NCBI GenBank assembly: GCA_039621445.1 | Contig: CP154954.1 | Span: 19,392,642 to 19,456,641, forward strand | Reading direction: 5' to 3' | Source: Euglena gracilis | Taxonomy: Eukaryota | Length of the DNA: 64,000 nucleotides | Shown: in pieces, positions 11,701-52,005 of the stretch | Layout: every line of letters begins with the position of its first letter | How positions within the stretch are numbered: position 1 is the first letter of the stretch | The notes under the pieces: model-generated | Seen by the model: only the letters and a program-made list of their open reading frames with translations | Database searches by the model: none | Told to the model about the DNA's origin: nothing | Position numbers and translations under genes: made by a program

Positions 11701-13892
11701 GAGGGGATAATCCACTTCCGCTGGATGAGCTTCTCAATCATCTCGTTGAGAGCCTGTTCGCGTTCACCCGAGCAACGGAAGAATTTCCGGTGCATAGGTT
11801 TAGCGCCATCCTTGAGCTCGATTTTGCAAACACCGAACGGACCGCGAATCGCGGGGTCGATGTCGCAGGCGTAAACTGGATTATCCAGTACACCATGAAA
11901 TTCGCGAGTAATTCGCGAACAATAGTCAGCGGACTTGGGGTGTTGGTCCGCACTCTCAATGACCGCAGAAATCTGCGTTGAGGGTGTGGCATCCCCATTG
12001 GTACCAAGGTATCTTGGCACACGCAAATCGGATATTCCGAATGCGTCAAAGAAACAAACGCGAAAAATGATTTCTTTAACAGGTGGTAATAATATACCAC
12101 AAAAATCCTCAAATAGTGGTACATCAGCGGGTAAATCCCACCAATGAAAACACACATGGGAAAGTTCGTGAAACCAATCCGCATTCGGATTGACGTGTAT
12201 GAGGAGAGCTCCTCGCGCTTCATCGCGGAGGATTTTCTCCACCACATCCGGGATAAGTTTTGGGGGAGGGTGCATCCATAGCACCGTATCACCCCAGAAT
12301 TTAAGAAATGCGTTGGTATGTCGCGACCAATATCGCGACAAGCGCGCATGCGCTTTTGATGAAAACGCATCAATTTCCAACGGCAAATCGAAGGAATCAG
12401 CCAAAACCGCGATTTTGGAGAACCATTCCTCCAAAATACGGTATTGACCAAAGTTAAATGCATTCCAGACACGCATCGCGTATGTGTCGACCTGATTCGC
12501 GGGTTGAAGAGCGGTAACGCAATTCAAGGATCCGCAAACATAGGTCAAGGGTGTGTCATCCACACTCCCAAGGGGCATTCCCAAGGGTTGATGGGTTGGA
12601 TGGGTACATACCCATTCCATATCATGCCAGATGGAGGTGGGGGAGGTGTGTGACACGGATTTCGCGGTCCCAAACAACAAGGCAATACCTCGTTGTTGGA
12701 GCACTTGATGTACGGTCGCGCATTGCGATCCGCAACCAAGTGTATGGTTACGCGAAATCGGGATTAGTGTTGGTGTTTGGACTAGACATCCACAATCGAA
12801 ATCTGGCTGGGCGGAAATTCTCCTACAGTGCACACATTGGAAGGAAGTGTCGGAGTAGTGGTCCTGGTCGCGCATGTTGTTCTGGTGGGGGTGTGTGTAA
12901 AAGTTGGGATGCGCTTTTGAAGCTGCTGGGGGGTGTACAGATGTATCTGAAAGCGATACATCTGGTGGAAAACGGGGTATTGGTTCAGCTGGGCGACTAC
13001 TCGACACCGTGATCACTTCAGGCCTTTGGGCTTTCGTCTTGTAACCCAGTGGAACGAGGGGGGTACCGCTACTCGCTTGCCCTGCCTCATGGGGAACGGA
13101 AGTTGGTGTGTCAATGGGCAGGGGGTGAACTTTCTCGGTACACCCGGTGTGGAAAACGTTGGTTGGTGTGGTTGGTAACGGGGTAAAAGTTTTCGAAAAC
13201 GGTGTGGAAAAATTGGTGGCTATCGCGGTTGACGCCACAGGTGATGAAGGTTTGGGGGGCAATGAGGAGAGCGGTGATGTGCGCAAACCGTGGGAGTGGC
13301 AATCCACTACCCGCCGGTGCTGACGTAAAAAGGGGTATCCCAGCTTTACGTCAGAACCATGGATTCCGGATTCATATCCCCAGGTATCCGGAAAATTTTG
13401 CGGTTGGGGGGGGTGTGAGTGGTGCTTGGGGATGAGGGGTAGGCCTATGTCCAAAAAGCATCCCAAGTCACCACCGCACATGGGGGTGTTGTCAGCCGTC
13501 GTAATTTTGATCGGCTTCTTGGCTTTCACCAAGAGGGGGGTTGGTATCAACCCGAACCGAAAAAGTAGTGCAATGCGACAACCAGTGTCAATGAGAATTT
13601 TGACTTTTGTACAAAAATTTTGGATTTTGATTTCCGCTTGGACCAAAAGTTCCATGGGGGGTAAGCAAAGTGAAGGGTCTGGCGAAAATACGTTTTCTTG
13701 CCAGCTTTCCCATGAACCCTTTCCTACTTTGCACAACATTCCGAGCGGAAAGTTGGAGTGGGGGGTGGGGGACCCGAAAATTTTCCGGGTACCGACCAGG
13801 AAGGCAGATGGGCAGGGGGGGCAGGGTTGATCAGGTCCTACCTCCATCTGTTCATCAGCCCAGAGGTCCGTGCCCTCGGACCTCGGGCTCCC
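11655..13892 (-). CDS. pol: Aspartic protease - spacer - N6-adenine MTase-like domain - RT N-terminus (pol)
   Basis: ILIDTGC protease motif with LGYPFL; IDAFSS...FWGDTVLWMHPPP MTase-like block; KIELKDGAKP...[10 protein letters not shown] start. The frameshift coincides with a 13-bp direct repeat at 11671-11683 / 11688-11700. Confidence 0.85.
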   Translation of the reverse strand, partial: GSPRSEGTDLWADEQMEVGPDQPCPPCPSAFLVGTRKIFGSPTPHSNFPLGMLCKVGKGSWESWQENVFSPDPSLCLPPMELLVQAEIKIQNFCTKVKILIDTGCRIALLFRFGLIPTPLLVKAKKPIKITTADNTPMCGGDLGCFLDIGLPLIPKHHSHPPQPQNFPDTWGYESGIHGSDVKLGYPFLRQHRRVVDCHSHGLRTSPLSSLPPKPSSPVASTAIATNFSTPFSKTFTPLPTTPTNVFHTGCTEKVHPLPIDTPTSVPHEAGQASSGTPLVPLGYKTKAQRPEVITVSSSRPAEPIPRFPPDVSLSDTSVHPPAASKAHPNFYTHPHQNNMRDQDHYSDTSFQCVHCRRISAQPDFDCGCLVQTPTLIPISRNHTLGCGSQCATVHQVLQQRGIALLFGTAKSVSHTSPTSIWHDMEWVCTHPTHQPLGMPLGSVDDTPLTYVCGSLNCVTALQPANQVDTYAMRVWNAFNFGQYRILEEWFSKIAVLADSFDLPLEIDAFSSKAHARLSRYWSRHTNAFLKFWGDTVLWMHPPPKLIPDVVEKILRDEARGALLIHVNPNADWFHELSHVCFHWWDLPADVPLFEDFCGILLPPVKEIIFRVCFFDAFGISDLRVPRYLGTNGDATPSTQISAVIESADQHPKSADYCSRITREFHGVLDNPVYACDIDPAIRGPFGVCKIELKDGAKPMHRKFFRCSGEREQALNEMIEKLIQRKWIIPSKSEWTSRASGAQTR

Positions 13893-16800
13893 CTACTCCA
13901 GGTCCGAACCGGCCGAATAGCCGGCTATGGGCCTTTTAGAGGTATAAACGGATTTCAACGTGCGCACCGCCATGCGGGCCTCGTCGAAATCGGTATCCGT
14001 GGTCTCATCCCCCTCCCTGCCCGAAGCCGGGGTGTCATCCTCCAAACAAGATATCTTGAAACCGACTTTATGGCGGTTGGAGGAGTGACCCTTGTCACCG
14101 CGATTCATACCGCGATGACGTTGGCCAGGGCGGGGAGAACGAGAACGCGGACATTTGGATGAGTGGTGATCACTCGATCCACAAAGCGAACACCGAGATT
14201 TGTGTCGCGATTCTTGGTAACGGGGGGATCGGTTTCCCGATTTCCCGTCAAACCGTCGTGGTGACCGGATATCCCGTCGACCATGACCGGTGTATCGGGG
14301 TTTTCCCGATGACGATCGCGAAGAAGATGATCCGCTTCGCGAACGCGATCGCGATGTCTCGCGATGAGAATCTCGCTTCTTGGCCGGGGCACCGGGTGAC
14401 CTACCCCGAGGGGTACCGTGTTTCCGCTCATCGCGGAACGGGATCCGGGGGCTAATACCACCGGAACGGGGACCCGATGACCGTGAATTGCCCGATTGGC
14501 GTGAAAACGCGGAGGAACCCGAACCTCGTGATGAGGTCGAGCCTCGCGGACTCTGAATACGCTTTCGCGCTTCAGGATTAGGACATTCCCGAGACATATG
14601 TCCCGATTTGTTGCACAAAAAGCACACTTTATCTGTGGCTTGGTCCGAAGAACGCGGGTATCGCGTTTTCGATCCCGTGGTGGGTGAAGTAGGTGAAACC
14701 GGTTATTTTTGCAATGTGTTTACCGAACCAGCCGGTAATCCAGCGGTTGGGTGTGCGGTATACGCGGATTGAATCTGACCAAGAAGCTGTGATAGCTTCA
14801 ATTGCTTGGAAACGTAGTTCCAGCGTTGGTCAAGAGTCATTGCATTACCCGCCAACTCCTCACGATGGATATCCTTGATGAGGCTAGGCGTGAAATGCAT
14901 GAGAACAGCGTCAAACTGTTCGCGCATTTGCTTTTCACTGAGTTCATCCACTTCAGCGGCAAGTCCTAACCATTTGGCATACCAAAGGTCAATGGACTTC
15001 CATTTGCGATCGGGTGGGGCGCATTGCCGCCACTTGGTCTCCAGGGTAATCCTAGCGACCAAACTTGAACTGGTGGAAGCGTATTGCTCCACCAGGTCAT
15101 CAAAGGAAACGCGGTAGCGAATGACGAGTTGTCGCGCGCGCTCCTTCTCATCCCTAGGGAGGCAATCGATGAATTCCATCTTGATCACCTCCGGGTTTGT
15201 GTCCTGGGTTGGCCCTTTCAATGCCCAGTAATACTCCCAGTCCCGGAAAAACTGTCTCCATGTGGTTGGATCACCGTTCCATTGGGGTTTCACCTTATTC
15301 GCGATTGCGATGGTGCCCTTGAAGTCTTTCTGAAAAACCCGTTGGCCCTCGGTGGTATTCCGTGGATTCGGGCCCGGGTACGCTCGAGCACCAAGCGTAT
15401 CCTTTCCGGATTCTTGTCGGAATCGCGAAATTTCTGGTGAAGGTGAATCCTGGTACCGGAAATCCGGTCGCAAACCCTGTTGGTCACCCGTAATAGGGGG
15501 ACACTCCGGTGTGGGGGTATGTCGCGCATGCAACATGTGACCCACTCCCGGTGTACGGGTTTGGCTCATTCCACGCACAAGCATGGAATGATGGATTTCT
15601 TGGTGGAGACTTGGCGGAATCGCCGTGTTTTCCGCGAATTCGGTTCCCGTAATGGGAAATTCATCCGAAAACTGGTTTTGAGTTGTAGGCAAGGCCAATG
15701 GTGGCACAATTCGCGGAATCGCGGATTGTGACACTCGGGACACGGGTGGTGGTGGTGCATGTGCACCCAGATTCGGGTTGTGGAAACGCGAATCTGGAGC
15801 ATCTGGCGCATCTTCGGCAATGCATACTGCCGAATTGCGGTGTGAAACCCGCTGTTGGTTGGACACATTATCCAAACCCACAGACAAGTCATGCACACTT
15901 TGCTCCAAATGCTCAACGAGTTGGAGTTGGCCGCAAATACGGTCAACTTCATCCTCCAAAGCGCGAATACGCTTGCGGTAACGGGAAAAGTCATCCAAGT
16001 GCGGAATCCTTTCGGAAATTCCGGTAACATCTTGGACAAGTTTCCCGTGAGACTTATCCAATAATTGGAGTTGTCCCATTAATGCTTTTACAGCATTTGA
16101 GAGAATCTGCAAAGGTGATGTCACCTTGGTTGGTGTGGTGGTGGGTGCAACCGGTGCAGGGTTATCCGACAACACGGTTGTGGTACCCATGGGCAAATTT
16201 CCAGGTTGTGGGTTATCCAACAACGCGGAAATTCGCTCATCCAACCTGGTAATCTCACTTTGCGTGGATCGGGCATTCCGATTCACCGATTCCTCAAGCC
16301 GTAATAGGCTGTTGCAGAAATCTTGCAAGGTTTCCTGATTGTTAGTGAGCATTTTGTCATAAAATGCCTTGAAATCAGGGTTCTCGGTAATCCGAGAACT
16401 GGAACCTGCAGGTAGAGACTGCATTTCCGTTACTTTGGTAGACACCGATGCATACCGGGTCTGGAGTTCCCCAATAGCAGTCTGAATACCGCTAATGTCC
16501 GGAACTCGGTGGGAAAGTGCGGAATAGCTTTGTTGCAAACCCGCAATGGCCGAGTTAATCCCGCCAATGTCGGATTGCAACTGCAACTGCAGGGAATCCT
16601 GCCGTTGTGCCATTTCCGCGACTTTCGCGCTCAGATTGGATAATCCAACCCGATTCGCGTCACAATAGCAGGTTTTCTGCTCCAAACGGGAAAGTCGCTC
16701 CTCCAACTGCCGCACATACGTGTGGGGAGCAAAATTCTCGTTGGCTTGTGACTGGAATTGCCGAAACTTTTCCGTTTCATCGCACAACTGCATAATGCGG

Positions 16801-17871
16801 TGTTGCGATTCATGGAAAGTTGCGGACAATGTGGTGAAAATGGTCCATAGACACAAATCCACCACTGCTGGATGTTGCAGACGAGGAATCTCGTGCATGC
16901 AACTGTTGTTGCAAATGCAACAACGCGGATGAACAGGACTCCATTTGTCCCGATAACTGTTGTAGTGAGCCATGCAAGTGCAGAAACTTGGAGTCATTCC
17001 GCGTTTCCGCTTCATGCATGCATTCACTAATTTGCCGGAAGTTTTGCGGGAGCTGTTGGCATATTCTGTCAAAGGTTTCCCGAAAGTTTGCAAGGTCAAT
17101 ACCCGCACTTTCGAAATTCCTCTGGCAATATCTGCCAACTTCCTGCAAGTAATTCCAGCAGTGTTCCAGCTTGGTGAAGACATGTTTCTGGTTGTCCTCA
17201 TCAAACTGAAGCACTTTGTTCAATGCGGTTGCACACTCTGCAACGCATTGTTGCACATGGTTGAACTGCCTCACAAGGGGGTGATCCCCTGGAAGCCGAG
17301 CAACAATATCCTGCACATCCTCAGCAGTGAGGAGCTCACCAGTGCCCTTCCCATAGTCATCCATGGGTTGGGATGTACCGGAGAATTCCGGCACCACGAG
17401 GCGAGTCTCCGGTTGCCAAGGTAGTGCGGGATAGCACCCGATATCGGGGGGTGGTGGCAAAGCTCTGTAAGGGCTTGCCGGTGGAAGAACGGGTGGTGGT
17501 TGAAAGAAACACGGGGTTTCTAGCCCACCATCACCAGAGAAGCCCGGTGGCGGAATCACCACGGGTCTCTCCGGTGTGTGCAGCTGCACCATTGCCGCAG
17601 ACAGAGGCGAATACCCCCGTTGTGGCAAGGTGAGTGCGGAAGAGGCCGCATTAGCCTCTGAAGCCAATGATGTGGAGGGCTCATCGCCGACCACTGTCAA
17701 TGATGACAAGTGTTGCAATCTTGACAATTGAGCCAATTGTGCCTCATCGGCGTGGGAACTGGAAGCACTTTCACATAAAAGCTTCCAATCCCCAGTTTCT
17801 TTGTCAATGTCTTGCAATGATGCCTGTAATAAGGCATAGTTGAATTGATGGTTGGGGCCTGTGCTTTGCAT
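13893..17871 (-). pseudogene. gag: Long gag: coiled-coil N-terminus, capsid-like region, two CCHC zinc knuckles
   Basis: ATG at 17871; 1-bp frameshift in a T4 run near 16840; capsid-like WNGDPTTWRQFFRDWE; in-frame TAA at 14703; knuckles CFLCNKSGHMSREC and CSLCGSSDHHSSKC. The TAG at 13893 is in frame with pol. Confidence 0.85.
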
Positions 17872-31553: not shown

Positions 31554-32421
31554 GCCCGGGCCGACCAACCCCCCACCTCCTGGTTCCTTCCCGTGCAATC
31601 AAATGGGGCTGCCGTGAAATACTGTTAAAAAAAATGTTTTTTCCCTGAATTTTTTTTCTTGCGCAGCAATTCTGTTCCTCAGTTCCTACCGTTGACTCGT
31701 CAGCGTAGGTGTTGTGATTCAACTTGGCGAACTCAGCCGTCGAGCGTACTTTAAAAAACGACTAGGTTGCGCCGCGGGGACTTTGCCATACTGAAATTTT
31801 GGCGCTCTACGAGAGGCACTTAAAAAGGAGGGGGCGCCCCAGCCGCGGCCAGCCACAGCTAGCCGTGGCTGGTGGCTGGGAGAAAAGAGGAGGAGGAGGT
31901 CTGGCTGGTGGCTGGTGAAAAAAAGAGCAGGAGGAGGTCTGGCTGGTCTCTGGCTGGCCGTGGGGACCCCAGCTCCCCAGGCCGCCTTCCCAGGTTCCGA
32001 ATGCCAACATGGTGAAAGTCCACCCTCCTGCTTTGCACGGGCCGTTACTTGGGAGATCAGGCAGTGGACTTTGGTCGTTTTGACCCCCTCCCCCCCTATG
32101 GTTAGGTTCACCGTTTGAAAGTTCACCGTGGGGTCCCGGACCCCCTGCCCCCCCCCCTCTGCCTAACCCATCGGTGAACTTCACCGGTGAAGTTCACCAA
32201 GAGAGCACTTTTTTTTGGCCAAAAATGGCCAAAAAATGGCATTTCAGGCAAGTTTTCGGAAATTTCGATAAAATTCCATGAAGCATCAACCTCAAAATGA
32301 CCATTTTGAGAGGAAAGGAGCAAAATTTTACCCGTGAAATTTTCACCCCCAACCATCAAAACGGTGAAGTTCACCGGTGAACTTCACCGGTGAACTTCAC
32401 CGCCGAAAGTACCCCCCTGGG

Positions 32422-32810
32422 CCCGAAATGGTGGCTGGGCTTGCAAATATCCCCGACTTCACCTGATGCACTTTGTGAAGGCTGTCAAAGTGCGGTGGAT
32501 CCGTTCGGGGATCACTGGATGTGCTGCATCCGGAACAACTGCTCTCTGCGCCACAACGCCGCACAGGACGCTCTTTTCACACTTTTGTCCAACACCGGCC
32601 AAGGGGTACAGAGGGAGGTCCCAGTTCCAAATCAACCCGATGGCAGCCTACGCCCTCCTGACCTGTTGTTGGCCAGTTGGCAAGATGGTCAACCAACAGC
32701 AGTCGACATTACAATTTGCCATTGCTGGCAAGCTTCAGAAAGAAAAGCATCGAGAGAGCTTTGGCGCATATTCCTGAAGAGAAAAGAGACCAGCAAGCGC
32801 CTCAAGGAGG
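32422..32810 (+). pseudogene. Fragment of CRE-like non-LTR element (CCHC + RLE endonuclease)
   Basis: KWWLGL...CEGC...GDHWMCC...RHNAAQD...RPPDLLL...AVDITICH is colinear with the C-terminus of the element at 35182-36249. Confidence 0.85.
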
Positions 32811-33104
32811 TTAGGCAGGGGTGGGGGGCAGTAGTCAACTGGTTTGATTATGCAGTGGTTCGCGAAGTTGGGAGGGGATGCCATCCAACCGTGACCGAAA
32901 CCACTGCGCGGGGGGGGGGACGCGGGGGGGGGGGGGGGGGGGGGGCGGGGGAATTGCCCAACTGGCCCCACTCGTTTTCTTTGGCGTCAACAAAATTTGT
33001 GTGTACTTTTCCTTTAGTCGACCAAAAAAATGTACCCGGCCAAAATCCGGGACGCAGGGGGGACGCGGGGGGGGGGGGGCAGGGGGATGCGGGGGGAACA
33101 CCCC

Positions 33105-33450
33105 CAACAAACGGGCTTGATCCCTGGGGGGCAGTTTGGCGAGCAAATTGTCAATTGAAGATTTGGTGAGTTCCTGTTGCCACCAGTGTTGTGAGCATTC
33201 ATCTGGAGTCACTACAGAGAATTGTAGCGGGTTGGTATGGAAGCAGTGTACCTCCCCCCCAGTTTCGGCCTCCCGGGGGGGAGGTGCATAATGGGGGGGG
33301 TAACCTCTCACCAAGTCACCGAAGATCTCTTTGTACAGCAACCTCAGTATAGCAACCACTGCCCTGTGTGCGCACAGGGAGTCATGAGCAGGTTCTCCTT
33401 GTGGCGAGGGCCAAAAGAGACGTATGGGTGAAGCTGTGCTACCCACCGTG
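33105..33450 (-). pseudogene. Decayed CRE-like fragment (post-RT linker)
   Basis: SQHWWQQELTKSSIDNLLAKLPPRDQARLL matches KQKWWNHELGKKTMDDLVDQARPRDQNRLL. Confidence 0.75.
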
Positions 33451-34244
33451 TATTACTGCGGAAAACCGCTTGAAAATTTCAAGACCCCATTGAGCCCTGA
33501 GGTGAATGCAAAACACAAAAAATTTCGGTGAATGAGGTGAATGCAAAACACAAAACTCAAACCGGTGGCTCCTGGTCCAAGCCCATGGATTCAGGCGACG
33601 CATCTCCTTCCTTCCGCACCTGGGACCTCTCAGATGCCACAGTATTGTCAGCCCGCCAACCTCTCCGTGCCAGCCCACAAGTGCACTGTACCAGTTTGTG
33701 CTGTAACTTGAATTTTTATTCATTGGCCCGTGGCCTGTCCCTGCGGTCCACATCGGTCCCCACTGGTGGCCACCGGCAGCTGTGGTCCCCTCCCAGCTTT
33801 TGGGCCATTGGCCTCTCTATCGACATTCATTGGGGGTGCTACCCCCGTGACCCCCCCCGTGACCCCCCCCGTGACCCGCCCGTGACCCGAGAATCGAGCC
33901 TTCAATTTTCATACAATGCATCAACCTTCATCATTTCAGCCTTTCTTTTCATTCATCATTTCAACCTGCTTTTTGATGTAGGTGGCAATTTTGGTCGCTT
34001 TTCATCAATTTTCTGGTTGAAAGCATTGAAAATTTGCCTTGGCATGGTCCATAAAAAAAGCAGCGTGAATTTGACCCATGGGGGTGTTGGGGACGCGGGG
34101 GGACGCGGGGGGACGCGGGGGGGGGGGGGGCGCGGGAGGCACCACCATTCTAGGGACCATGATCGAAGCTGACGGTTTTCTGTTCTTTTCACCGATTTCA
34201 GGATGCGTTCTGCCCTTCTCGTGATGTGATGCAACATCATTGTT

Positions 34245-34641
34245 TGTTTAAAACGAAGTCAAAAAAAACACGTTTTTTTTTAAAAAAAACATGTTTTTTT
34301 TTAAACAAAAACAAAAAAAACGCCATTGAGGGTCCAGGGCGAAAATTTTTTTTGCCTTTAACTTTAGCTTTTTTTTGCCCATCCTCAGGCAGAGAAAGAC
34401 ACCAAATTTGGGATGTTTCAAGTTGAAACATCCCAAAATGGCAGAAAAATGCCCTATTTTAACCATTCTTGTTGAAGACCTCCAAAAGTATTGGTTTTCA
34501 AGTCATTTGAGCTAAGATTGGTTCACCCTTGCGATCAAAGGCAAAATTTGGACCATCATTTTCCCCTTTGTTTTTTTTCCGTTTTTTTGCCTGCTTTTTT
34601 TAATAAAAAAAAAACGTTTTTTTAAAAAAAAGCCAGCTATG
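34245..34641. mobile_element. Left-truncated copy of the catagctggc hAT-like MITE
   Basis: Near-identical to 36425-36735; right TIR gccagctatg at 34632-34641. Confidence 0.75.
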
Positions 34642-35136
34642 TCAAAGTGGCATACTTCCCCCGTGACCCCCCCCGTGACCCCCCCCGTGACCCCCCCGTG
34701 ACCCGCACCACCCCCATTTGGCTCTGGACTGGTGCCCCCCCCCATGGCCCATGTGCAGATTTAATTGTCACTGCATGTTGTTTTCTTCCCTGGTTCTGTG
34801 CTTTGCCCTTTTATGTGAGAAGGAAGGCGCGGTGGTGGGGCGAACCGAATCCACCGACCAGTGGCACAGCCTACTGGATTTGAAGGTCCGCAGGCGGTTA
34901 TGATAATTTACAGCAGGGGTATAGGATGGCGGGTGGAAAATGGGCTAGGCCCACCTTCAAATAAGTAACGCGTGGGTGGAGAGGCGAGGGGGAGCGGGGA
35001 GCTGAGGGGAACGGCAGTGCTGGAATGTAGAGGGGTCGGGGGCAGGGCAGCGGTACGTGGCTTGACGGGGAGAGTGGCGGTGGGTCGTGGATGTGTGTGT
35101 GTGTGTGTGTGTGCTTGTTGTGGGTTTTTTTTTCCC

Positions 35137-36409
35137 TTACCGGAGAATGTGCTTGGGTTGCAGGAGATGGAAGACTTCGCGTTATAGGGCGATTGCGACG
35201 TTCTGGTAGATCTCCGCCTCCTTTAATTCTCGTTCCGCCCCCTGTTGCCAGGACGAGGCGCGTTTCGCCACCCGGCTCAGGGTTTTGGCTGTCTCGGGCC
35301 CCATGCCCCCCCAGGTTCCCAGGGCAAAGGGCGTGAAGCCCCAGCCTGCCTGCTGGCATGGGATATTGTACTTCTGCTTTTTAGCCTCCTCCCTTCTCTT
35401 CAGGAAGGATCTCCACCGTTCGCGGGTGGCAGTGTGTTCACTCGCTTGCCATCTGTGGCACACGGTGACATCCAGCGCTGTCGGCTTCCCGTCAGACCAG
35501 CAATCTAGGAGGAGGTCGGCCGGGCGGAGGTGGCTATCTCGGGCCGTTGGCAGGGAAACCTCCTTCTGTACCCGCTGTCCGCTGTTGGACAAGGTTTGGA
35601 ATAGTGCGTCCTGAACAGCGTTGTGGCGGGTGGCGAAGTTATTCCGCCGACAGCAAAGGAGGTGGTCACCCTCCTTGTCCAGGGGATGGTTGCATCCCGT
35701 GCATGGTTGACTGACGTCGTTCAGCACCGGGAGACCCAGCCACCACTTCAACCCCAAGGTGTACTCCTCACTGGAGAAAGTGGTGTGGGAGTTGTTGGAC
35801 GGGGTTGCTGCCATCCAGCCATGCCCGAAACCTGTGGCCTGTTCGAGGAGGCGGTTCTGGTCCCGGGGCCGAGCCTGGTCCACCAGGTCATCCATCGTCT
35901 TCTTGCCCAGCTCATGATTCCACCATTTCTGTTTCTGGGCTTCCGGGTCCGCAGACGCGATACGTTGAGGGTTGATGAGGAAGGTGGTGACCGTGGCGTG
36001 GTTTGCCCCTAGCCTGCCCCTGAGGTCGTCCAGGACAGGCGTAACGAGGGAGGGCTGTGGGGAGGTTGCGTAGCCGGGAACACCAACCCGTCGTGCCCCA
36101 TCAGAGTAGAAGTCTGCAAGGCAGGAAATCCTGGCCGCAGGCTGTGTAAAGGTTGGGATGCGGAGGCCGCAGCCGCCACTTGACAGGGGCAGGGAAGCCT
36201 GGGCCCGCTGTTGTGTGTTCAGTGCCGTGCCCAGGATGATCCTCAGCACAGCTTCTCACCTGGTCCTGGCTGCCATATGAGTGGGATGCCCGAAGCAGGT
36301 GGTTAACCTTGCAGCCATCCAGACAGCTCCGAAGCAAATGGTGCGCTACCTGAGCGTCGGTGACGGACGTGATGGTGGATGCGGCCTTCTCGATTTTGGC
36401 GGCGGCAGC
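35137..36409 (-). pseudogene. CRE-like ORF C-terminus: thumb/linker, CCHC, restriction-like endonuclease
   Basis: QASLPLSSGGCGL, CTGCNHPLDKEGDHLLCC, RHNAV, RPADL, ALDVTV, KKQKY, PFALGTWG. Frameshift near 36245. The TAA at 35182 is probably premature, with the next stop at 35137. Confidence 0.9.
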
Positions 36410-36839
36410 CATAGCTGGCACTTCGTTTAAAACGAAGTCAAAAAAACACGTTTTTTTAAAAAAAAACATGTTTTTTTTTAAAAAAAAACAAAAAAAACGC
36501 CATTGAGGGTCCAGGGCAAAATTTTTTTTTGCCTTTAATTTTAGCTTTTTTGCCCATCCTCGGTCAGAGAAAGACACCAAATTTGGGATGTTTCAAGTTG
36601 AAACATCCCAAAATGGCAGAAAAATGCCCTATTTTGACCATTCTTGTTGAAGACAACCAAAAGTATTGGTTTTCAAGTCATTTGAGCTAAGATTGGTTCA
36701 CCCTTGCGATCAAAGGCAAAATTTGGACCATCACAAACACACCCCTTTTTTTCTCTTTTGTGTCTTTTTTTTTTCTTTTTTTTTATACCTCTTCTTTTTT
36801 TTTCTTTTAACCACCCCCCCCCACCTCCCCCCCCCCGGG

Positions 36840-36881
<42 letters not shown>

Positions 36882-36975
36882 CTTTTTGGGTTGTTTTTTT
36901 TGCCCGTTTTTTTTTAAAAAAAAACAAAAAAAAAACGTTTTTTTTTAAAAAAAACAAAAAAAAACGCCAGCTATG
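36410..36975. mobile_element. hAT-like MITE (566 bp) inserted in the CRE ORF
   Basis: TIRs catagctggc / gccagctatg; perfect 8-bp TSD gcggcagc (36402-36409, 36976-36983). Removing it restores AWEAAAAKIEK in frame. Confidence 0.92.
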
Positions 36976-38180
36976 GCGGCAGCCTCCCACGCCGTCTGCG
37001 TGGTGTCCGTAGACGCTGGGTGGTCAACTGGGATGCCCAGGACGGTGATGCCTTCCCCTGGGGTCCAAGGGACCACTTGCATCCTTTCAGAACTCGGCGT
37101 ACTCCTGGCTCCCGGGCCCCACATGACGCACTTCTGCAGGTTGAGGCCGAGCCCTATTCGATGGGACTCTTGCATCAAGAAACGAATGCAGTGCTCAATC
37201 CGGTCTGGAGTCCCGACCAGCAGGCCGTCGTCCAAGTACCAGCTGTTCCACAGCAACTGACCATCGTTGGTGATCTGTTCCAGTAGAGGCTGTAGCGCGA
37301 GCGCGAACCCTATGGGGCCCAATGGGCAGCCCTGGTGGGTGCCTCTCTGTGACAGGATGGAGCGACCGCCGCAGAACAAGGGAACATGCCCACTGTACGC
37401 GAATCTCAGAAAGTTGAACAGGCTGGGGGTGCGTGTTTCCGCCTCCGTCAGAATTGCTCCTCGGTCCACCGTGTTGAACGCATTGGAGTAGTCCACCTGG
37501 AGAGAAACCCAGGGCGACGTGTCCCCCAGCTGAATGACCAGGTGTTGCATACCCAAAGCGACGGCCTCAACCGCGTTTCGTACCCCAACCCCAACTTGGG
37601 TAGGGGCGAGGGTTGCGACCTCGGATCTGGCGTTTGGTGTTTGGAGCAGGGCTTTCCCCACCAAGCGACGTATAGTTTCCCCAACCGCCACCGGGCGTAT
37701 CCCGTTATCCTTTTTGCGGAGCGGCGTTAGGTTCGCACAGCACCAGGCCGCGGCGTGGTGGGGCGGCAGCTGGCCGTCCACCCAGACTTGGGTCAGGAGT
37801 GCGAGGGCAGTGATCAGCCTTGCTCCTCGACCTGATCTCCGCAGGCAGTCTTGGAGGTGGCTTGGTCGCAACCCAGATGGCCCCGGCGCCGATCCCCGTG
37901 GGAAGCGACGGATGGCATCCTTCAGTCGGTCCTCCCACTCAGGGGTGTGGTTCTCGGGGAAAGGGCGGACGTGACGCGGCAGGCGGTTGGTTTCAACATT
38001 CCTGCCGGCGGGGTGTAGCTTTTCCAGGGCGCCCCAGACCTCTGGGTCGTCCGGTTGGTGCGCACCCTCGGACAGCAGAATCTGAACAGCCTTTGCAGAA
38101 GCCCCCTCTGCGGTGAGGGTGCGTACGCGTCTCGTCATTGCTTCACTGAGGGCGGTGGGCTGAGTCCTGGAACGTTTTTC
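36976..38180 (-). CDS. Non-LTR reverse transcriptase (CRE-like)
   Basis: SAPGPSGLR, IRPVAVGETIRRL, QVGVG, VDYSNAFN, GTHQGCPLGP, WYLDDG, GLGLNLQKC. One extra A in the A5 run at 38175-38179 would join it to the upstream ORF. Confidence 0.93.
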
Positions 38181-40669
38181 TGCCTGGTCTCCACAATGGA
38201 GTGTCGTGACTGGGTGTCCTTTTGGGCTTCTGTCAGCAGGGTAGCGTAATCCCCTTCGCGGAATAGTCTGGCGCGTCGCAGTAGGATGGACTCCAGTTCT
38301 GCTGGTGGCGGTGGTTTGGTTGTTGATGCCGGGCGGAGGACCAGCTTGGGGAAGGAGAGCACGGCGAACAATGCCGCGTCCGTGGGTGCTCGTACGTATG
38401 CCGTGATGGCGTCTGCCATGGTGTCAAAGACAGGTTGTTGGCAGGCCGAGGGCAGGTGGAGGAGGCTCGGAAGTCTCTGTTGGAGAAGATGGGTTATGTC
38501 GCAGGGGGGAGCGCCAACCACCAGACTGTGCGCAGGCTGTCCTCGGAGATTGGACTCCTGGCCGGCACTGTCGATGACCATCGCCGCGTCACGTTCCGGG
38601 TGAGCGAGGTCCAGGAAAAGGTTGTCATGTTCCCTGGCCTCAGTTGCGGTTGGCGCGCCGCGGGGGGATGGCGGTGCTGGGCGCTTGGCCGGCCCAGGGT
38701 TCTCCTCCACCTCCCCACAGGTGAGGAGGCTACCCCGTCCACGGTTGGTCCCCAAGGTGGAGGGACCGCCCAGTGACGGACTACGCCGGTCGTTTTTTGG
38801 TGCCGGGTGGACCGGCGCTGTCTCAGCCGGTGGTGCTTGTACAGTGCCAAGGAGGGAGCGTGGGGTGGGGTTCAGCCGGAAGGCCGGCCGAAGAAGTGGT
38901 GTTTTGGGTGCGCCGAAGTGTTGCGGAAGTAGCGAGGGACAGTCCCATGGCCATTGCCACAGTCCACAGCGTTGGCACCAGTGGGGTGACGTGCCCCGGA
39001 TGTCCCAGAGGGCGTCGTGGTGGATGAGGAAAGTCCGGCCCGCGTAGTCCCCCAGGTGGAATGTTTCCCCGCCGTGACAGGCGGTTGGATACGGTGTGTG
39101 CGAGGCACGAGGCGGACGTTCCGAGTAGCTTGCGCGGGAGACGGGCCTCACTGGCCCCGGGGCACTGCTCAGTGGAGGGTGGCCTGGGTGGTGTATCCGC
39201 AGGGCCACAGTTGCCCAGCCTGGGGTCGGGAGCAGTGCCGTCCCCCTGGCCCGATAGATAGGGCACCGTGGCAGGGTCAAGCTGCCCGAGGAGATGCTCC
39301 GAAGGCCAGCCAGCACATTGGACCAGTCTGGTGCGAGAAGGATGATGTTGCTGCTATGGCGGAGGACGTGCTCAAGAACAAGAGGGAGCAAGGAAAAAGG
39401 CGGGTTGCACCATATTGGATTCGGCAGGAACCAGTTCTGGAGGAAGGCGTCTTCCCTTTGTGACCAGAAGTGGGCTAGTTGTGTGTTGTTCTGGTCGGCG
39501 AAGGCGTCGATGGTGGGCGGGTTGTCCGGCGAAAGGGCCTGGACTACGACCTGGAACCACGGGGGGTCCAGCATAAAATCCTCGCGTGGTACTCGGCGTG
39601 GGAGGTCCTCAGGGGGTCGTGTGGCACTACTGGGGCCCGGAGTGCATTCGACGTCTCCCAGGCGGTTGAGGATGTCCTCGCCCCTGCCGGTGGATGAGTG
39701 AGGCGAGCCAGGTACCGGGCTGTTGGATCCAGCGGCGGTGACCTCCCTGTGGCCGTGTGAGTAGACCGCATGCTTGTTATCATCTTCGTCGTGTTCATCG
39801 TCGCCTTCCAAGTCGCTTTCCAAATCGGAGAGAGACGGTGGTGTACAAAGTTGCATGTGGCTCAGTAGGGGTGCCGGGTAAGGGGTTTCTGTCGACCATC
39901 CACAGACCTTGCAGCGGACCAGCCACCACTCTCCATTTGGTAGGGATTCCAGGTGGTGTAGGTCCCAGCGCCAATTGTCTTCCCGGACTGTGGTGAGCGA
40001 AAAGATGTTGCCGAACGGTCTACCTGCCTGGCAGTGATGAGACTGCATGTCCCAGAGAGACGACAGGTTGATGTGCTGAAAGCACAGGCGGCATTTTGCA
40101 AATTCGGTCCCTGGGCCGACCTGGGCCGGGGCCCCAGAGGATGGGCCCGCTGTGGCCGGGGTGCGCAGACGTTGCCACCTCCAGCGCTGGCCATTCCAGT
40201 ATAGTTCGTCCCATATCTCGTCCGGTGTCAGACGGGCTGTTTGGCCGGCTGACCCCCGGAAGAACGGCCCGGGTTTTCTTCGATATCCCCACAGCAGAGA
40301 ATGTCCCTGTGGCTTTTGTTCGTGTGGTGATAGAGCCACAGGTCTGCCGGCCATAGGGGGGGCCGGTCCTGTGGGTGCCCAGGGTGTGTCCTGCCCCCCA
40401 TGTTTTGGCGAGGAACTGCCACCGGACTTCCCCCCCGCCCTGGAGCGGAGCACAAGGTGCATACAGGAGGAGCTGGCCCCCGTCGTCCGCCAGGTCAGAC
40501 CAGGTGCGTCCGGGGGGGGGTGAGGGGGAAGGGGGGCCACAGTGATATGGATGTTTTCCAACCACTGGTCCACGAGGGCTTTTTTGTTTTTTTTTCTTTG
40601 GCCAGTCCACTCCCCCCAGATGGAGGCATCCGTCGAGGACAGCACAGACCAGTCGTCTGCGGCTGTCAC
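38135..40669 (-). CDS. N-terminal part of the CRE-like polyprotein: zinc fingers, N6-adenine DNA MTase, 2A-like motifs
   Basis: CRLC..HHC and CKVC..HMQLC; IDAFAD...DAFLQNW...WCNPPFSLL...ILLAPDW; GRGSLLTCGEVEENPGP. No in-frame ATG at the 5' end. Confidence 0.85.
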   Translation of the reverse strand: MTAADDWSVLSSTDASIWGEWTGQRKKNKKALVDQWLENIHITVAPLPPHPPPDAPGLTWRTTGASSSCMHLVLRSRAGGKSGGSSSPKHGGQDTPWAPTGPAPPMAGRPVALSPHEQKPQGHSLLWGYRRKPGPFFRGSAGQTARLTPDEIWDELYWNGQRWRWQRLRTPATAGPSSGAPAQVGPGTEFAKCRLCFQHINLSSLWDMQSHHCQAGRPFGNIFSLTTVREDNWRWDLHHLESLPNGEWWLVRCKVCGWSTETPYPAPLLSHMQLCTPPSLSDLESDLEGDDEHDEDDNKHAVYSHGHREVTAAGSNSPVPGSPHSSTGRGEDILNRLGDVECTPGPSSATRPPEDLPRRVPREDFMLDPPWFQVVVQALSPDNPPTIDAFADQNNTQLAHFWSQREDAFLQNWFLPNPIWCNPPFSLLPLVLEHVLRHSSNIILLAPDWSNVLAGLRSISSGSLTLPRCPIYRARGTALLPTPGWATVALRIHHPGHPPLSSAPGPVRPVSRASYSERPPRASHTPYPTACHGGETFHLGDYAGRTFLIHHDALWDIRGTSPHWCQRCGLWQWPWDCPSLLPQHFGAPKTPLLRPAFRLNPTPRSLLGTVQAPPAETAPVHPAPKNDRRSPSLGGPSTLGTNRGRGSLLTCGEVEENPGPAKRPAPPSPRGAPTATEAREHDNLFLDLAHPERDAAMVIDSAGQESNLRGQPAHSLVVGAPPCDITHLLQQRLPSLLHLPSACQQPVFDTMADAITAYVRAPTDAALFAVLSFPKLVLRPASTTKPPPPAELESILLRRARLFREGDYATLLTEAQKDTQSRHSIVETRQKNVPGLSPPPSVKQ
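38690..38740 (-). other. 2A-like ribosomal skipping motif GRGSLLTCGEVEENPG|P
   Basis: In frame; differs from the T2A core GRGSLLTCGDVEENPGP only by D>E. Confidence 0.85.
40265..40312 (-). other. Second 2A-like motif HRDILCCGDIEENPG(P), frameshifted
   Basis: Read in track ORF 40228-40455. One extra C in gaagaaaacccgggccg gives DIEENPGP and enters the frame of the 844-aa ORF (PGPFFRG). Confidence 0.75.
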
Positions 40670-41290
40670 CGAGTTTGTGGGCAGCTTTGCTGGGGTTTGG
40701 GTTTAGGGTTATGTGAGAAGGGGGGCCAAGCAATTTTCCCTCAAAAAAATCGCGAAAATCCCCGGTGGCGAGGGGGTCCGGCTACGTGGCGAGGCACTCG
40801 GAGAGGGGGGGGGGAGGGGTGTACCAACCTGCCGTTGGGGTTTTGCATTGTAAGTGCGATCTGCTGGTCTGCACGCCACCCCCTGTATTATTATTTGTAT
40901 TTTTTTGGGTTATGCCCCCTTGAAACAAATCCTTTTGCTTTTCAGGCTGGATTTATTTAGGTTTTTTGTGCGAGGCCTTGGGCGCACCTTGGGTAAATGA
41001 TCAAATCAGGCTTCTGCAGAAAATGTAACACACCTGCGAGTTAATGTTCTGCACCTTTTTTCCCGGGGGAACCCTGCGTGACTGGGGGGACGGTCAGGAC
41101 ACATCACCGAATGCTCGAGCCGGTCGTGGTCCGCTTCTCCACTACGGGGGGGGTGGTGCCTCCGGCAGGCGTCTTTTTGTCCGGAGCTCCTAAGGTCCGA
41201 ACATTCACCCGGGCGAAGTTTGGCCCCGACGAACTTAGTCCCCCTAGCACAATACGTACACAGCGCGCGTACGTATTGTTTGGTCTGGAT

Positions 41291-42056
41291 CAGGGATGGC
41301 GGGGGGATTAAAATCCCCCCGATTTAAATCGCCTAGAAACTAGGGGATTTTAATCAGGGGGGATTTAAATCGTTTTTTAGACGAAAGCGGGGGTCTGACA
41401 CGGCCGCGCAAGTCTTTTATTGTCAAAAACACTTCGCCCAATGTGGAAACTTTCGAGCCGACCTAAATGTCGCCGCGAAAGGCAACTCCGCTCGCCGGCA
41501 GTACCTTTTTGGTCTTACCCTGGCCCAAACACCACCGGATGGGGGAACGTGTTTCCTTTTTTGAAAAATCCAACGGCGAACCCAAAAAAAAGTTGAACAA
41601 CAGGGGGGGGCTTTTTTTTGGAACATGGAACACCGAAGCAAAAATTGATACACTGCTTTTTTTTATACTTGAAAGACCTCTTTTGGTGCGGAGGCAAAAA
41701 ACAGAAGAGGGGCGTATCAGTTGAATGTCTTTTTGCGAAGAGCAGTGTTGACAAACGGTGGCAGCTCGTGACTTTGAAGCGCAAACCGTCAACCATCCAA
41801 GCGTAAACCCAACCATATTTGACTTTCAAAATGTGAGCGGTGTACGACACCTGACATTTAAAAAACCTACCACAAAAAATGGTCCAGTCACAAACTGGGT
41901 GCTGCTAGGGGGGTGTGGGGGACAGGGTTAAACAACCGACTCCGTGTCGGAGTCGTCGTCGTCCACAGAAGACGCCCTTAGGGAGCGGAATAGAAACGCC
42001 AGCTGCCCCAGCTTTGCCACAGACAGCCTTTGACGATATGCACCAGCGGCAGCCCG
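41291..42056 (-). mobile_element. Probable 3' end of a hAT DNA transposon (transposase C-terminal remnant + terminus)
   Basis: cagggatggc terminus with gatttaaatc subterminal repeats. AAAGAYRQRLSVAKLGQLAFLFRSL..DDDDSD* resembles the end of the hAT dimerisation domain. No partner TIR found. Confidence 0.45.
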
Positions 42057-42059
42057 TCG

Positions 42060-42745
42060 CCCCACAGATTTTGCCCAACCCGTAAATGCCCCCCCCCCAA
42101 AACAGATTTTTGCCCAACCCGTAACCCCCCCCCCCCCACAGATTTTTGACCAACCCATAAATGCCCCCCCCCCCACAGATTTTTGCCCAACCCGTAAAGC
42201 CCCCCCCCCCCCAACAGATTTTTGACCAACCCGTAAATGGCCCCCCCCACAGTTTTTTGCCCAACCCGTAAAGCCCCCCCCCCCAACAGATTTTTGACCA
42301 ACCCGTAAATGCCCCCCCCACAGATTTTTGACCAACCCGTAAATGCCCCCCCCACAGATTTTTGCCCAACCCGTAAAGCCCCCCCCCCCCCAACAGATTT
42401 TTGACCAACCGTAAATGCCCCCCCCCCCCACAGATTTTTGCCCAACCCGTAAACCCCCCCCAACAGATTTTTGCCCATCCCTTCATTGCCCCCCCCCCCA
42501 CAGATTTTTGACCAACCCGTAAATGCCCCCCCCACAGATTTTTGCCCAACCCGTAAATGCCCCCCCCACAGATTTTTGCCCAACCCGTAAACCCCCCCCC
42601 GACAGATTTTTGACCAACCCGTAAATGCCCCCCCCACCACAGATTTTTGCCCAACCCGTAAAGCCCCCCCCCCCAACAGATTTTTGACCAACCCGTAAAT
42701 GGCCCCCCCCACAGATTTTGACCAACCCGTAAATCACCCCCCACA
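42060..42745. repeat. ~40-bp minisatellite cagatttttg(a/c)ccaacccgtaaa(t)g(c)n
   Basis: About 17 tandem copies. Confidence 0.9.
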
Positions 42746-43113
42746 GACTATGACGATGGTCTGGCTCCGAATACATGCACACGTACTGAATAATCTCTCA
42801 ATATCACAACTGGTAGCGGCACTCATCGCCAGGCGGCAACCCAGTTCTGCCAGCGTTGGCGAAGAGCCCAATGCCAGTGGCAGTGATTCGGACTCTGGAT
42901 AGCCGGGCGGCTAGCGATAGTGGCTTTCGGACAGACATCTGGACAGACATGTTGGCTGGCTAGGTTGGTCTGCCAGCCGGCTAGGTTGGTCTGCCAGCCG
43001 GCTAGGTTGGTCGGGCCAAATGCGCCCCATGGGCTTCCGAGACCTTTTGTCGTGTCGAGCGGAGGTATCGCCTAGGCCTTGTAGCGTCTTCCTTTTCGGC
43101 GTGACCCTGCTGT

Positions 43114-46564: not shown

Positions 46565-47121
46565 TAAATACCTTTTCGCGCTCTGAATGGTTCGAAACAC
46601 GCGACACGCAGCGGTCCAAGACTTCCTCACCTCCTTGGCTCAACGCGCCAGATTCCAAGCCAAAAAAAAGAACAACGGGCTGATGACAATTCTCAGCCTG
46701 GCGATATCTTCATTCCTCGCCTTGACAGTGAAGGCCCGGTCGCCATCGACGTCCCCATCCGTCACACACAGACGCCAAGCAATCCTCTGAGCCGTGCCGC
46801 ACAACTTCCCATTTGGCAAGAAAAACAAGAAGAGACAAACACCGCAAATATGATGCAACATGTTCGAGACGAGGCTGGCGCCTCACCCCGTTTGTGTTTG
46901 GCGGCATGGGGCAGCAAGGCCATTCTCTGATGTCCACTCTCCTTAAAGCCTTGTTAGGGCAAAGGGAGAGTTGGCTTCAGCGCCAAACCCAAGCAGAAGT
47001 GTGGCAAGGACTCTCACTCCTGGCCAAAGAAATCTCTAAACAACTGGTTTGGAGCTTCTACACCAACCTGTCAAATGACACTGACCTATCTGCCGGTTGC
47101 CACCTCCCCTATTCCCAATAA
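46565..47121 (+). pseudogene. 3' fragment of CRE-like element (RLE domain)
   Basis: TRHAAVQDFL, PGDI, AIDV, KHRKYDATC...LTPFVFGGMG across frames. Confidence 0.75.
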
Positions 47122-48379: not shown

Positions 48380-50180
48380 TCACCTAAACACAGGGAGGTC
48401 GCTGTGGAGGCACCTGCGCATGGTGGCTCAATGTACAGTCACGCCCCCGTAAGCCCCCGTGGAAGCAGACAAAGCTCCTTGGGGTGAGCATGGCCTCGGG
48501 AAAAAGGCGATCCATGAAAAGTGGTGAGCCCCAAATCCTGAGGGTGACACGGCATGAGGAGGATGGGTGCCAGCTCCGCACGGGTGTAATCCTCGGCCTT
48601 GACGAGCCCATCTCCCCCCAGCCACGGTGAGGGGTCGGAAGGAGCAACGGTCAGGAGGGAGGTTCGGCAGCCACCCCCCCCCCTTGTGGTCGGACCCCCT
48701 CGGCACGGCAAAATGGGGACCCCCCCCTGGTCAGCCGACCTCCTCGGCACGGCATGCTGAACCATACCAATGAATATTCCTTTGGGAAATTCGGGCTGTC
48801 CGCCACGGTGGACCCCGCCTGGGGGACTAACCCCCTCGCCACAGCAAAATGGGGACCCCCCCCCCTGGTGGCCGAGGGTCCTCGTCAGACGTGCCAAACC
48901 TCCGAGCGCCGTGTGGTGTGGGGCGCCCTTGGGGCCGAGCCGTGGTGACGGGGAGTGTAGTTTCTCTGTCAGGTGTTGTCGCATACGCCGGGGCAACCAA
49001 CCTGTGGCCGTTTGTGAAGAAGGAGCATAGGGCAGCCATGCATGCTGCGATTTGCGTCAAAGCAGGAATCTGCAGACCGCAGCCCCTTTTTGATAGTGGC
49101 AGTGAAGCTTGCATCCTTTGTTCTGCAGACAGGCTGTTACCAACAACGTCTTGAAACGCCTGCAGTATGACCTCAGAGCACGCAGCAATGCTGTCTTGAC
49201 AGCCGTACAAATCCGAATTCCTCAGCAGGTGGTTTACGCGGCAGCCGTCTAGGCACAAGGTTCCCGTTTTTTTTTTGCTTTAAAACAAAGCAAAAAAATT
49301 TATTGTTTTTTCATGAATAAAAAAACGGTTTAAAAACGGTTTTTGTTTTAAAAAAGGGTGTTTTTTAAAAATAAAACACTACAAACAGGAAAAAAATCTG
49401 TTTTAAACAACTTGTTTAAAAACAGCCCGGGAACCTTGTCTAGTCAAAAATGTATTAAGTGGTGCGCCAGTTGTGGGTCAGCCAACTGTGTGACTGTTTC
49501 GGCCATCTGTTCAATTTTGTTGGTTGCCTCTGACCAGGAGTCTGCATTGTGTGCTTGTGTTGTTGGGAAGTCAATTGGGGCCCCCAAGACTGTTATTCTG
49601 AAATTTGGTTCTCAGGGAATGACCTTTAGGTCCCCGTGGCAGCCCGCCTGGGTGGCAGCTGGTCTCCTCCCAAATTGAGCTGAATGCCAACACGCTCGGA
49701 TTCGCCTTTGATGAATTGTAGGCACCGCTGAATTCTTTCCGGGTCTCCCACCAGAAGGCCATCGTCAAGGTACCAAACAGACCATAAAAGCTCCGCAGAG
49801 CGGTGTATGGTTTCCACAATTGGCTCCAGACCCATCGCAAAGCTCACCGGTCCCAGTGGGCAACCTTGTTGTGTTTGGCCGTCACAGAATAATGGGCTCG
49901 GAGAGCTGTACGCGAAATGCAAATAATTGTATAATGACGGGACTGCTCTGTGCAGTTAATAGCAGCGTTTGGTCGATGCAATTAAACGCGTTCCGGAAAT
50001 CCAGTTGTAGAATTGCCAAGTTTGTGGGTCCAGTTTCCGAATGAGTTGTTGCAAGCCTATTCCAACCGTTTCGGCTGCTCTGGAAACACCCACGCCCACC
50101 TGGGCGGGAGAGAATTGGGCCAACCCCAGTTGCTAAAACGGCTTTGCCCACAAGGCGGCGGAGAGTGTCACCCACCGCAG
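48380..50180 (-). pseudogene. Decayed CRE-like RT/RLE copy
   Basis: GDTLRRLVGK, LDFRNAFN, QQGCPLGP, WYLDDG, CLDGCRVNHLLR, QASLPLSKRGCGL in shifted frames. Confidence 0.85.
49256..49438. mobile_element. hAT-like MITE inserted in the decayed CRE copy
   Basis: TIRs caaggttcccg / cgggaaccttg; TSD tctaggca / tctagtca (7 of 8 match). Confidence 0.8.
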
Positions 50181-51944: not shown

Positions 51945-52005
51945 GGTTAGGGTTAGGGTTAGGGTTAGGGCTTGGGTTAGGGTTAGGGTTAGGGTTAAGG
52001 TTAGG
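51945..52005 (+). repeat. Interstitial telomeric repeat (TTAGGG) x ~10
   Basis: Direct reading, with two variant units. Confidence 0.9.

Follow-up and report, generated by a model that had tools for sequence, protein, structure and literature searches.

A window of 64,000 nucleotides from Euglena gracilis (contig CP154954.1, positions 19,392,642 to 19,456,641; all coordinates below are those of the window) was analyzed, and a decayed retrotransposon of the long interspersed nuclear element (LINE) type was found on its minus strand. The perfect 13-mer CCTTCTCACATAA occurs at 40721-40709 and at 34823-34811 and at no third site in the window. Because the two copies of this target-site duplication (TSD) abut both ends, the element is exactly 34824-40708, and these are the limits that a preliminary description, made from the sequence alone, had given for a TSD-bounded element. 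Along the minus strand the modules follow in the order leader, DIEENPG(P), two C2HC fingers, GDVECTPGP, a Dam-like methyltransferase with a Cys-rich domain, GEVEENPGP, a reverse transcriptase (RT), and a CCHC knuckle with a restriction-like endonuclease (RLE) (Table 1). An open frame of 855 codons (38135-40702) extends into the start of the RT protein and holds the fingers, IDAFAD, NPPF, CQRC, and GEVEENPGP, all of which the preliminary description had placed in one frame. The element was collinear with a 1294-aa relative, P0005, over P0005 residues 1-1293, with a gap at 36380-36975, and this comparison revealed frame breaks near 38182 and near 36250. For a comparison of copies, contigs of four sequencing runs (X1, X4, X9, and X18) were aligned to the element, and at position 38182 some of these other copies carried one additional base. 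The single open reading frame (ORF) that had been reconstructed earlier is unbroken in relatives (P0156, 2111 aa), but in the window copy it is broken near 38182, near 36250, and by an insertion at 36404-36984. The window copy is dead.

Table 1. Features of the retrotransposon in the window (numbering of the 64,000-nucleotide stretch)
Feature	Position	Strand	Basis
TSD, 5' copy CCTTCTCACATAA	40709..40721	-	sequence reading
5' untranslated region (UTR), opens with telomere-like CCCTAAACCCAAACCCC	40402..40708	-	first ATG of the 2A frame at 40401-40399
Leader, ~44 codons from ATG, ends CCGDIEENPG(P) = first 2A	40265..40401	-	reading-frame inspection
Finger module, two C2HC motifs (40093-40031, 39913-39845)	39659..40264	-	motif reading; homology to P0002
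Second 2A, degenerate, GDVECTPGP (T replaces N of NPGP)	39632..39658	-	P0002 and P0156 read GDVEQNPGP here
Dam-like N6-adenine methyltransferase core (predicted), DAF motif from 39511, NPPF from 39406	39179..39589	-	Pfam PF05869; AlphaFold2 (AF2); structural matches
Cys-rich C-terminal domain of methyltransferase module (LWD..C-x2-C..WPWDC..SLLP)	38924..39058	-	conservation; AF2
Third 2A, GEVEENPGP, in frame, after GRGSLLTC	38690..38716	-	relatives: GRG..LL.CGD(V/I)E.NPGP
N-terminal region and RT of RT-RLE protein; RVT_1 ~37116-37718; frame break near 38182	36985..38689	-	Pfam; comparison with P0005
Nested unrelated repeat, 581 bp	36404..36984	.	X1, X4, and X9 contigs join 36403 to 36985
R2-like C-terminal region: helical linker, CCHC knuckle 35703-35650, RLE (D 35517, K 35382); frame break near 36250	35182..36403	-	conservation; AF2; Foldseek
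3' UTR without poly(A) tail	34824..35181	-	sequence reading; terminal ~55 bp common to many more records
TSD, 3' copy CCTTCTCACATAA	34811..34823	-	sequence reading
Entire non-LTR retrotransposon copy, decayed, 5885 bp	34824..40708	-	TSD on both ends; collinearity with P0005

The RT and endonuclease regions were compared with known families and structures. Pfam RVT_1 was matched with an E value of 6.4e-13 in the frame 36945-38423. The 357-aa C-terminal frame (35182-36255) was modeled with AF2 on 14 sequences with a predicted local distance difference test score (pLDDT) of 86, and all seven Foldseek matches with E<=0.001 were R2 proteins, at a template modeling score, TM(query), of 0.42-0.57. 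Ten residues of this region (C185, C188, H198, C202, H211, E232, D247, D262, E289, and K292) were invariant in the 14 sequences. As in the R2 protein (PDB 9dou, 9nl3, 8gh6, and 8iby), a C-terminal linker, a CCHC knuckle, and an RLE fold lie downstream of the RT. No match to Exo_endo_phos, the domain of apurinic/apyrimidinic endonuclease (APE)-type elements, was found in the four frames scanned, the Pfam scan of the element's frames detected no tyrosine recombinase, integrase, or RNase H, and self-comparison of the element revealed no internal long direct repeats and no terminal repeats. The element is an RLE-type, R2-like retrotransposon without long terminal repeats (non-LTR), in which the RT is followed by a CCHC knuckle and a PD-(D/E)xK endonuclease and which is bounded by a TSD. 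Unlike R2, it shows no single evident target site: the sequences past the 3' end agree among copies at only 0.35-0.43 (loose ends at 34830), and this disagreement of the flanks argues against one fixed target. It also differs from R2 in that its fingers form a separate 2A-bounded module and a methyltransferase has been added. For the label CRE-like, given in the preliminary description, the evidence reaches no further than an R2-like RLE organization. In the ESM Atlas, the RT-RLE part retrieved only RVT_1 clusters with mixed taxa.

The long ORF contains sites resembling class-A 2A peptides, at which the ribosome skips the Gly-Pro bond and in whose models the N before PGP is invariant, according to the accessible text of PMC12338488. 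Measured against the class A consensus D(V/I)ExNPGP, the window copy reads DIEENPG with its P one base out of frame, DVECTPGP, and EVEENPGP; at the corresponding positions, the complete consensus is present in relatives. Coding sequence was in frame on both sides of sites 2 and 3 in the window and of all three sites in P0156, but not of site 1 in the window copy. DIEENPG (40287-40267) lies in the frame behind the ATG at 40401, which is other than the frame of the downstream ORF; base 40267 serves both as the end of the G codon and as the start of the following P codon, which leaves this copy a single base short at its first skipping site. The upstream DIEENPG|P reported earlier is therefore present as a motif but does not stand in the ORF. 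In the relative P0158, a 16-aa leader ends LLCCGDVEANPGP, in frame. The run of seven C in the leader (40355-40362) is a run of eight in some of the other copies, namely, in three contigs of X1, three of X4, and one of X9. The second site, GDVECTPGP, sits in frame between the fingers and the methyltransferase. The preliminary description recognized the two flanking motifs but overlooked this third site, which is canonical in P0002 and P0156 (GDVEQNPGP). Because a 2A-like site lies here, the methyltransferase module measures ~314 aa rather than 525 aa. The free ~525-aa zinc-finger methyltransferase that had been proposed must accordingly be given up for the family, which would release the finger protein and a ~310-aa methyltransferase apart, since relatives carry the further 2A between them. 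The last site (context GRGSLLTCGEVEENPGP, end at 38690) has E, not D, as its first residue. The window copy itself releases nothing, because its middle 2A is degenerate and its ORF is broken. A second 2A subtype, DGDVE(S/A/Q)NPGP with a W ~12 residues upstream, was observed in P0033, P0048, P0069, P0070, P0088, P0098, P0142, and P0163; it recalls the invariant tryptophan of class B and keeps the class A core.

The methyltransferase was assigned by profile, motif, and structure comparisons. It matched the Pfam Dam family (PF05869) at 31.3 bits against a gathering cutoff of 28.1 (E 2e-7), over profile positions 30-72 of 169 only, and the relatives P0005 and P0014 scored 28.3 and 31.5. IDAFAD (from 39511) and NPPF are intact in the window copy, and D43, F45, N77, P78, and P79 were at least 90% conserved in an alignment of 70 sequences. 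This alignment was the basis of an AF2 model of the 314-aa stretch from the second to the third 2A; the mean pLDDT was 71.8, with values of 94-98 across residues 21-150. Foldseek placed PCIF1, a cap-specific adenosine methyltransferase, at the top (E 1.3e-4), together with KsgA/Erm enzymes. VIA-align, which is independent of Foldseek, gave PCIF1 a Z of 10.1 (126 residues, root mean square deviation 3.1), followed by Mcbe1 (8.7), T4 Dam (8.6), ErmE (8.6), EcoDam (8.2), and DpnM (7.0), with Erm/KsgA at about 8.5. Because best Z values of 7-8 are common, the top match alone stands clear, and the comparison supports the fold class and not the substrate. The core is predicted with high confidence to adopt the Rossmann (class I) N6-adenine methyltransferase fold, and the absence of such a fold, which the preliminary description had named as refuting its reading, is thereby contradicted. 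Sequence searches of the PDB reached a best E of 0.58 with the methyltransferase stretch and returned no matches with P0005. The Cys-rich domain that follows, with its CQRC cluster at 38977, is kept in P0001, P0003, P0004, P0005, P0008, P0034, and P0156 and was modeled as short strands with a pLDDT of about 70.

Two alternative readings of this module concern its activity and its substrate. The Dam domain is truncated, at about 135 residues; according to the accessible part of a preprint (10.64898/2026.05.21.726589), CD-1 and TR-1 are missing from eukaryotic Dams, and N6-methyladenine (6mA) did not rise when Dams of eukaryotic DIRS and LTR elements were expressed in dam-deficient E. coli. Together with the MHPPP that replaces NPPF in another, Gypsy-type Dam-like domain of the window, these points would suit a domain kept as a noncatalytic nucleic-acid-binding or scaffolding module that methylates nothing. 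Such a role seems unlikely to us, because conservation of the DAF and NPP motifs reaches at least 90% across 70 divergent sequences, both motifs are intact even in the window copy, and the predicted fold is like that of active N6-adenine methyltransferases. Alternatively, the enzyme might methylate RNA, placing N6-methyladenosine or its cap-adjacent form (m6A/m6Am) on the element transcript, rather than DNA. PCIF1, a cap-specific RNA enzyme, stood at the top of the structural matches, ahead of T4 Dam and of many rRNA adenine methyltransferases, and the negative outcome for double-stranded DNA in E. coli points the same way. However, by sequence the domain belongs to the DNA Dam family PF05869, the gap in Z to T4 Dam is small, and a common fold does not reveal the substrate; an RNA methyltransferase is thus the kind of explanation that we would accept only with considerable reluctance.

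The finger module carries two motifs of the form C-x2-C...H...C and aligned with the N-terminal half of P0002 (tblastn, 36.6% over 339 columns). No Pfam family was found for it, and a word-based search in the "near" and "shorter" length classes returned no relatives. The C2HC finger protein would probably be an ORF1-like nucleic-acid binder.

Relatives of the element were collected with the 525-aa cassette as the query against 1.84 billion representative proteins. At E<=0.001, 432 proteins were matched; 67 of them passed E<=1e-10, and 6 passed E<=1e-30. The matches fell nearly always on the methyltransferase part of the query, and NPGP was present in 54 of the 153 proteins retained, mostly as GD(V/I)ExNPGP. 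P0156 reads, in one 2111-aa frame, 2A, fingers, 2A, Dam and Cys domain, 2A, RT, and RLE, which is the order of the window, and P0005 (1294 aa) reads Dam, Cys domain, 2A, RT, and RLE. In P0014, P0019, and P0162, two or three 2As surround the Dam and finger modules with RT and RLE downstream, and the highest count per protein was five 2As, in P0035. The Dam module precedes the finger module in P0013, P0027, and P0162, and P0158 and P0163 are Dam-less (leader, 2A, fingers, 2A, RT, RLE) and keep the invariant endonuclease residues. When the endonuclease region of P0005 was used as the query, a precomputed Dam was present in 3 and absent in 8 of the 11 proteins found. Among close copies, one contig each of X4 and X9 joins 38844 to 39775, with 162 other letters in place of 38845-39774, that is, of the Dam module; these contigs are a close Dam-less variant with at least 85% likeness. 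This architecture is that of a real, widespread, and abundant family, in which the methyltransferase is an integral, 2A-bounded, optional, and modular cassette of the LINE polyprotein.

These relatives bear on two further alternatives. The window is rich in nested repeats, a Gypsy-type Dam lies 22 kb off, and the preprint, in its accessible part, raises nested insertions for the mixed elements of one species, all of which could be taken to mean that a DIRS or LTR fragment happened to insert into this single LINE copy, giving a chimera, or that the cassette was created by faulty assembly. The same module order was nevertheless found in uninterrupted ORFs from other sources, and the methyltransferase lies in one open frame in P0156, P0005, P0014, P0019, and P0162, which removes the nested-insertion alternative named in the preliminary description. 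In addition, all 30 depth bins of the element were covered in X1, X4, and X9, and the LINE Dam and the Gypsy Dam fell on opposite sides of the tree described below, so a chimera or artefact is scarcely credible. The joint occurrence of a methyltransferase and a PD-(D/E)xK-type endonuclease in one element had also invited the analogy of a restriction-modification pair, in which the methyltransferase shields DNA from the element's own endonuclease. The Dam-less RLE relatives, namely, 8 of the 11 proteins of the endonuclease search (among them P0158 and P0163 with their retained endonuclease residues) and the close variant in X4 and X9, instead indicate that the endonuclease works in elements without a methyltransferase, and we consider this analogy very improbable.

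A tree of the Dam domains was built. The domains were excised by phmmer, with 157 matches in 154 of 165 sequences; under a permissive 2A pattern (HPGP allowed), a 2A stood both before and after the domain in 15 matches, before it alone in 16, after it alone in 23, and on neither side in 103; many of the sequences were fragments. Matches of fewer than 100 query positions were dropped, and the window's Gypsy-type domain was added by hand to the remaining 94 rows (95 in total). The midpoint split separated 61 rows, including all 43 2A-bearing proteins, from 34 rows with none (Shimodaira-Hasegawa-like approximate likelihood ratio test, SH-aLRT, 89). The 2A label required 16 changes on the tree, compared with a mean of 31.4 after shuffling, and none of 500 shuffles was as low. 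On the 2A side, a 2A lay no more than 30 aa before the domain in 21 of the 34 rows with at least 30 residues upstream and no more than 210 aa after it in 30 of the 40 rows with at least 60 residues downstream, whereas the same criteria gave 0 of 26 and 0 of 12 on the other side. Sampled proteins of the side without 2A had the DIRS-like and LTR-type architectures RT-RNaseH-Dam, protease-Dam-RT, or Dam-integrase, and P0081 (RT-RNaseH-Dam) took an unresolved position at the base of the 2A side. The window's Gypsy-type Dam grouped with the LTR types, on the opposite side from the LINE Dam. This domain belongs to a Gypsy-type LTR retrotransposon at 8766-17219 (minus strand) with a gag carrying CCHC knuckles, the Dam-like domain before the RT, the RT itself, and an integrase with, by eye, an apparent C-terminal chromodomain; its Dam-like part (11655-13892) has MHPPP for NPPF and scored 21.2 bits with Pfam Dam, under the cutoff.

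The element was then compared with known systems, as described in the accessible parts of the sources cited here. The preprint reports Dam in DIRS and, newly, in LTR elements ("DAM-LTR"), finds 46.1% of Dam sequences without transposon features, and brings up RTs of the LINE/L1-like type a single time, where they are considered a potential artefact in one species; its accessible text contains neither "NPGP" nor "2A-like" nor "skipping". The LINE Dam resembles those of DIRS and DAM-LTR elements in its Pfam family, its truncated domain, its conserved Asn-Pro-Pro pocket, and its retrotransposon carrier, and a DAM-LTR of the preprint type is present in the window at 11655-13892. Unlike those elements, the host here is an RLE LINE with a TSD, its Dam is 2A-bounded, and LTRs, RNase H, integrase, and tyrosine recombinase are lacking. 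SymbioLINE-Dnmt (PMC5890265) is likewise a LINE with a TSD, no poly(A), and a DNA methyltransferase upstream of the RT, but it is APE-type, its enzyme is a C5-cytosine DNMT of an unrelated fold family in a separate ORF1, and no 2A is mentioned. 2A sites have been described inside APE-type LINE ORFs (Odon et al. 2013, PMC3708506), and LINE cargo domains (deubiquitinases and pentatricopeptide repeats) with 2A have been described upstream of ORF2p (PMC13405545). The window family shares with these cases a class-A GD(V/I)ExNPGP inside LINE ORFs; the reported cases are APE-type or Dualen with mostly one N-terminal 2A, whereas the window family is R2-like with up to five 2As and a Dam cargo. The word "methyltransferase" occurs 0 times in the published 2A surveys checked. 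Full-text literature searches turned up a review on recoding in general and one paper on another subject but none that joins LINE, Dam, and 2A, and supplements may list LINE-type Dam.

Taken together, our preferred reading, to which we assign a probability of about 0.75, is that the element belongs to an R2-like RLE LINE family whose ORF is split by class-A 2A sites and which carries, as an optional 2A-bounded cassette, a Dam of the eukaryotic retrotransposon lineage that is known elsewhere from DIRS and LTR elements. Anatomy, family, and fold, together with the optional nature of the cassette, enter this reading as results; the remaining steps are conditional. The class-A StopGo/2A sites would divide the long ORF by skipping, so that in intact members one mRNA would yield a leader peptide, a finger protein, a free methyltransferase, and an RT-endonuclease protein. 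The methyltransferase, if active, may methylate adenines of the element's own RNA, RNA:DNA hybrid, cDNA, or fresh insertion, to the element's advantage. A role on the element's own nucleic acid accords with the suggestion in the preprint (accessible part) that Dams of transposons take advantage of permissive chromatin marked by 6mA or require an RNA:DNA substrate.

Several results weigh against this reading. The window copy cannot make the products, given the base lost at its first 2A, the two frame breaks, the nested insertion, the T for N in its second 2A, and the E for D in its third. An extra C behind 40355, as in the longer C-run of other copies, would fuse the ATG frame to the main ORF and bypass the first 2A; among the alignment rows listed, no close copy gained a base at 40265-40270 that would bring its first 2A into frame. 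The relatives come from metagenome assemblies and may be incomplete. In the tree, the SH-aLRT of 89 for the split falls below the mark of 95, and 18 rows of the 2A side are without a 2A, many of them short fragments. The E. coli result for eukaryotic DIRS and LTR Dams belongs here as well.

With this family, non-LTR elements join DIRS and LTR elements as retrotransposon classes with Dam-like methyltransferases, and, if the preferred reading is correct, 2A signals can serve as module borders between which cargo enzymes are gained, lost, and reordered. The natural Dam-bearing and Dam-less pairs in the same genomes would offer a direct test of the role of a transposon-borne adenine methyltransferase, and dozens of naturally occurring variants of the class-A 2A would be available from the family in their own polycistronic setting. 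A more far-reaching proposal, which we put forward as speculative and doubtful, is that the element represents an undescribed large clade of R2-like LINEs with cargo exchangeable via serial StopGo, in which a Dam freed by two working sites would methylate the RNA:DNA intermediate or cDNA during target-primed reverse transcription and new copies would be born 6mA-marked as permissive chromatin. If this is true, such LINEs would account for some of the eukaryotic Dam sequences, roughly 46%, for which the preprint found no transposon.

Further observations concern the copies of the element and their surroundings. The bin 34824-35020 was far deeper in run contigs than the element body; the terminal ~55 bp (34830-34883) had a summed depth 10- to 25-fold over the body, with loose ends at 34830 and 34883 in all four runs, which suggests a 3' tail common to many truncated copies or non-autonomous elements. 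Run X18, presumed RNA, contributed 65 pieces matching the element, which were not taken as expression. The nested repeat at 36404-36984 is an insertion private to some copies, because contigs of X1, X4, and X9 pass directly from 36403 to 36985. A GCTGCCGCC-like duplication is present at its flanks, its depth in the runs was far above that of the LINE body, and a second copy with 95% identity over 316 bp lies at 34243-34558, just past the 3' end of the LINE. Rfam and tRNA scans of the whole window gave no matches. Other RT/RLE fragments with 28-53% identity to the element's proteins were found at 49402-50178 (-), 48947-49255 (-), 32384-32845 (+), 33105-33251 (-), and 46819-47067 (+), with no methyltransferase near them; this LINE group has left its dead remnants across the window. 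The first bases of the element (40692-40708) are the telomere-like CCCTAAACCCAAACCCC, and apart from these, two interstitial TTAGGG arrays, one of 4 units at 51947 and one of 3 units at 51977, lie within 51947-51994. Adjoining the element, a Gly-rich tandem repeat with units like GGHLRVGQKSVGG occupies 41905-42747 (-), with all three frames open.

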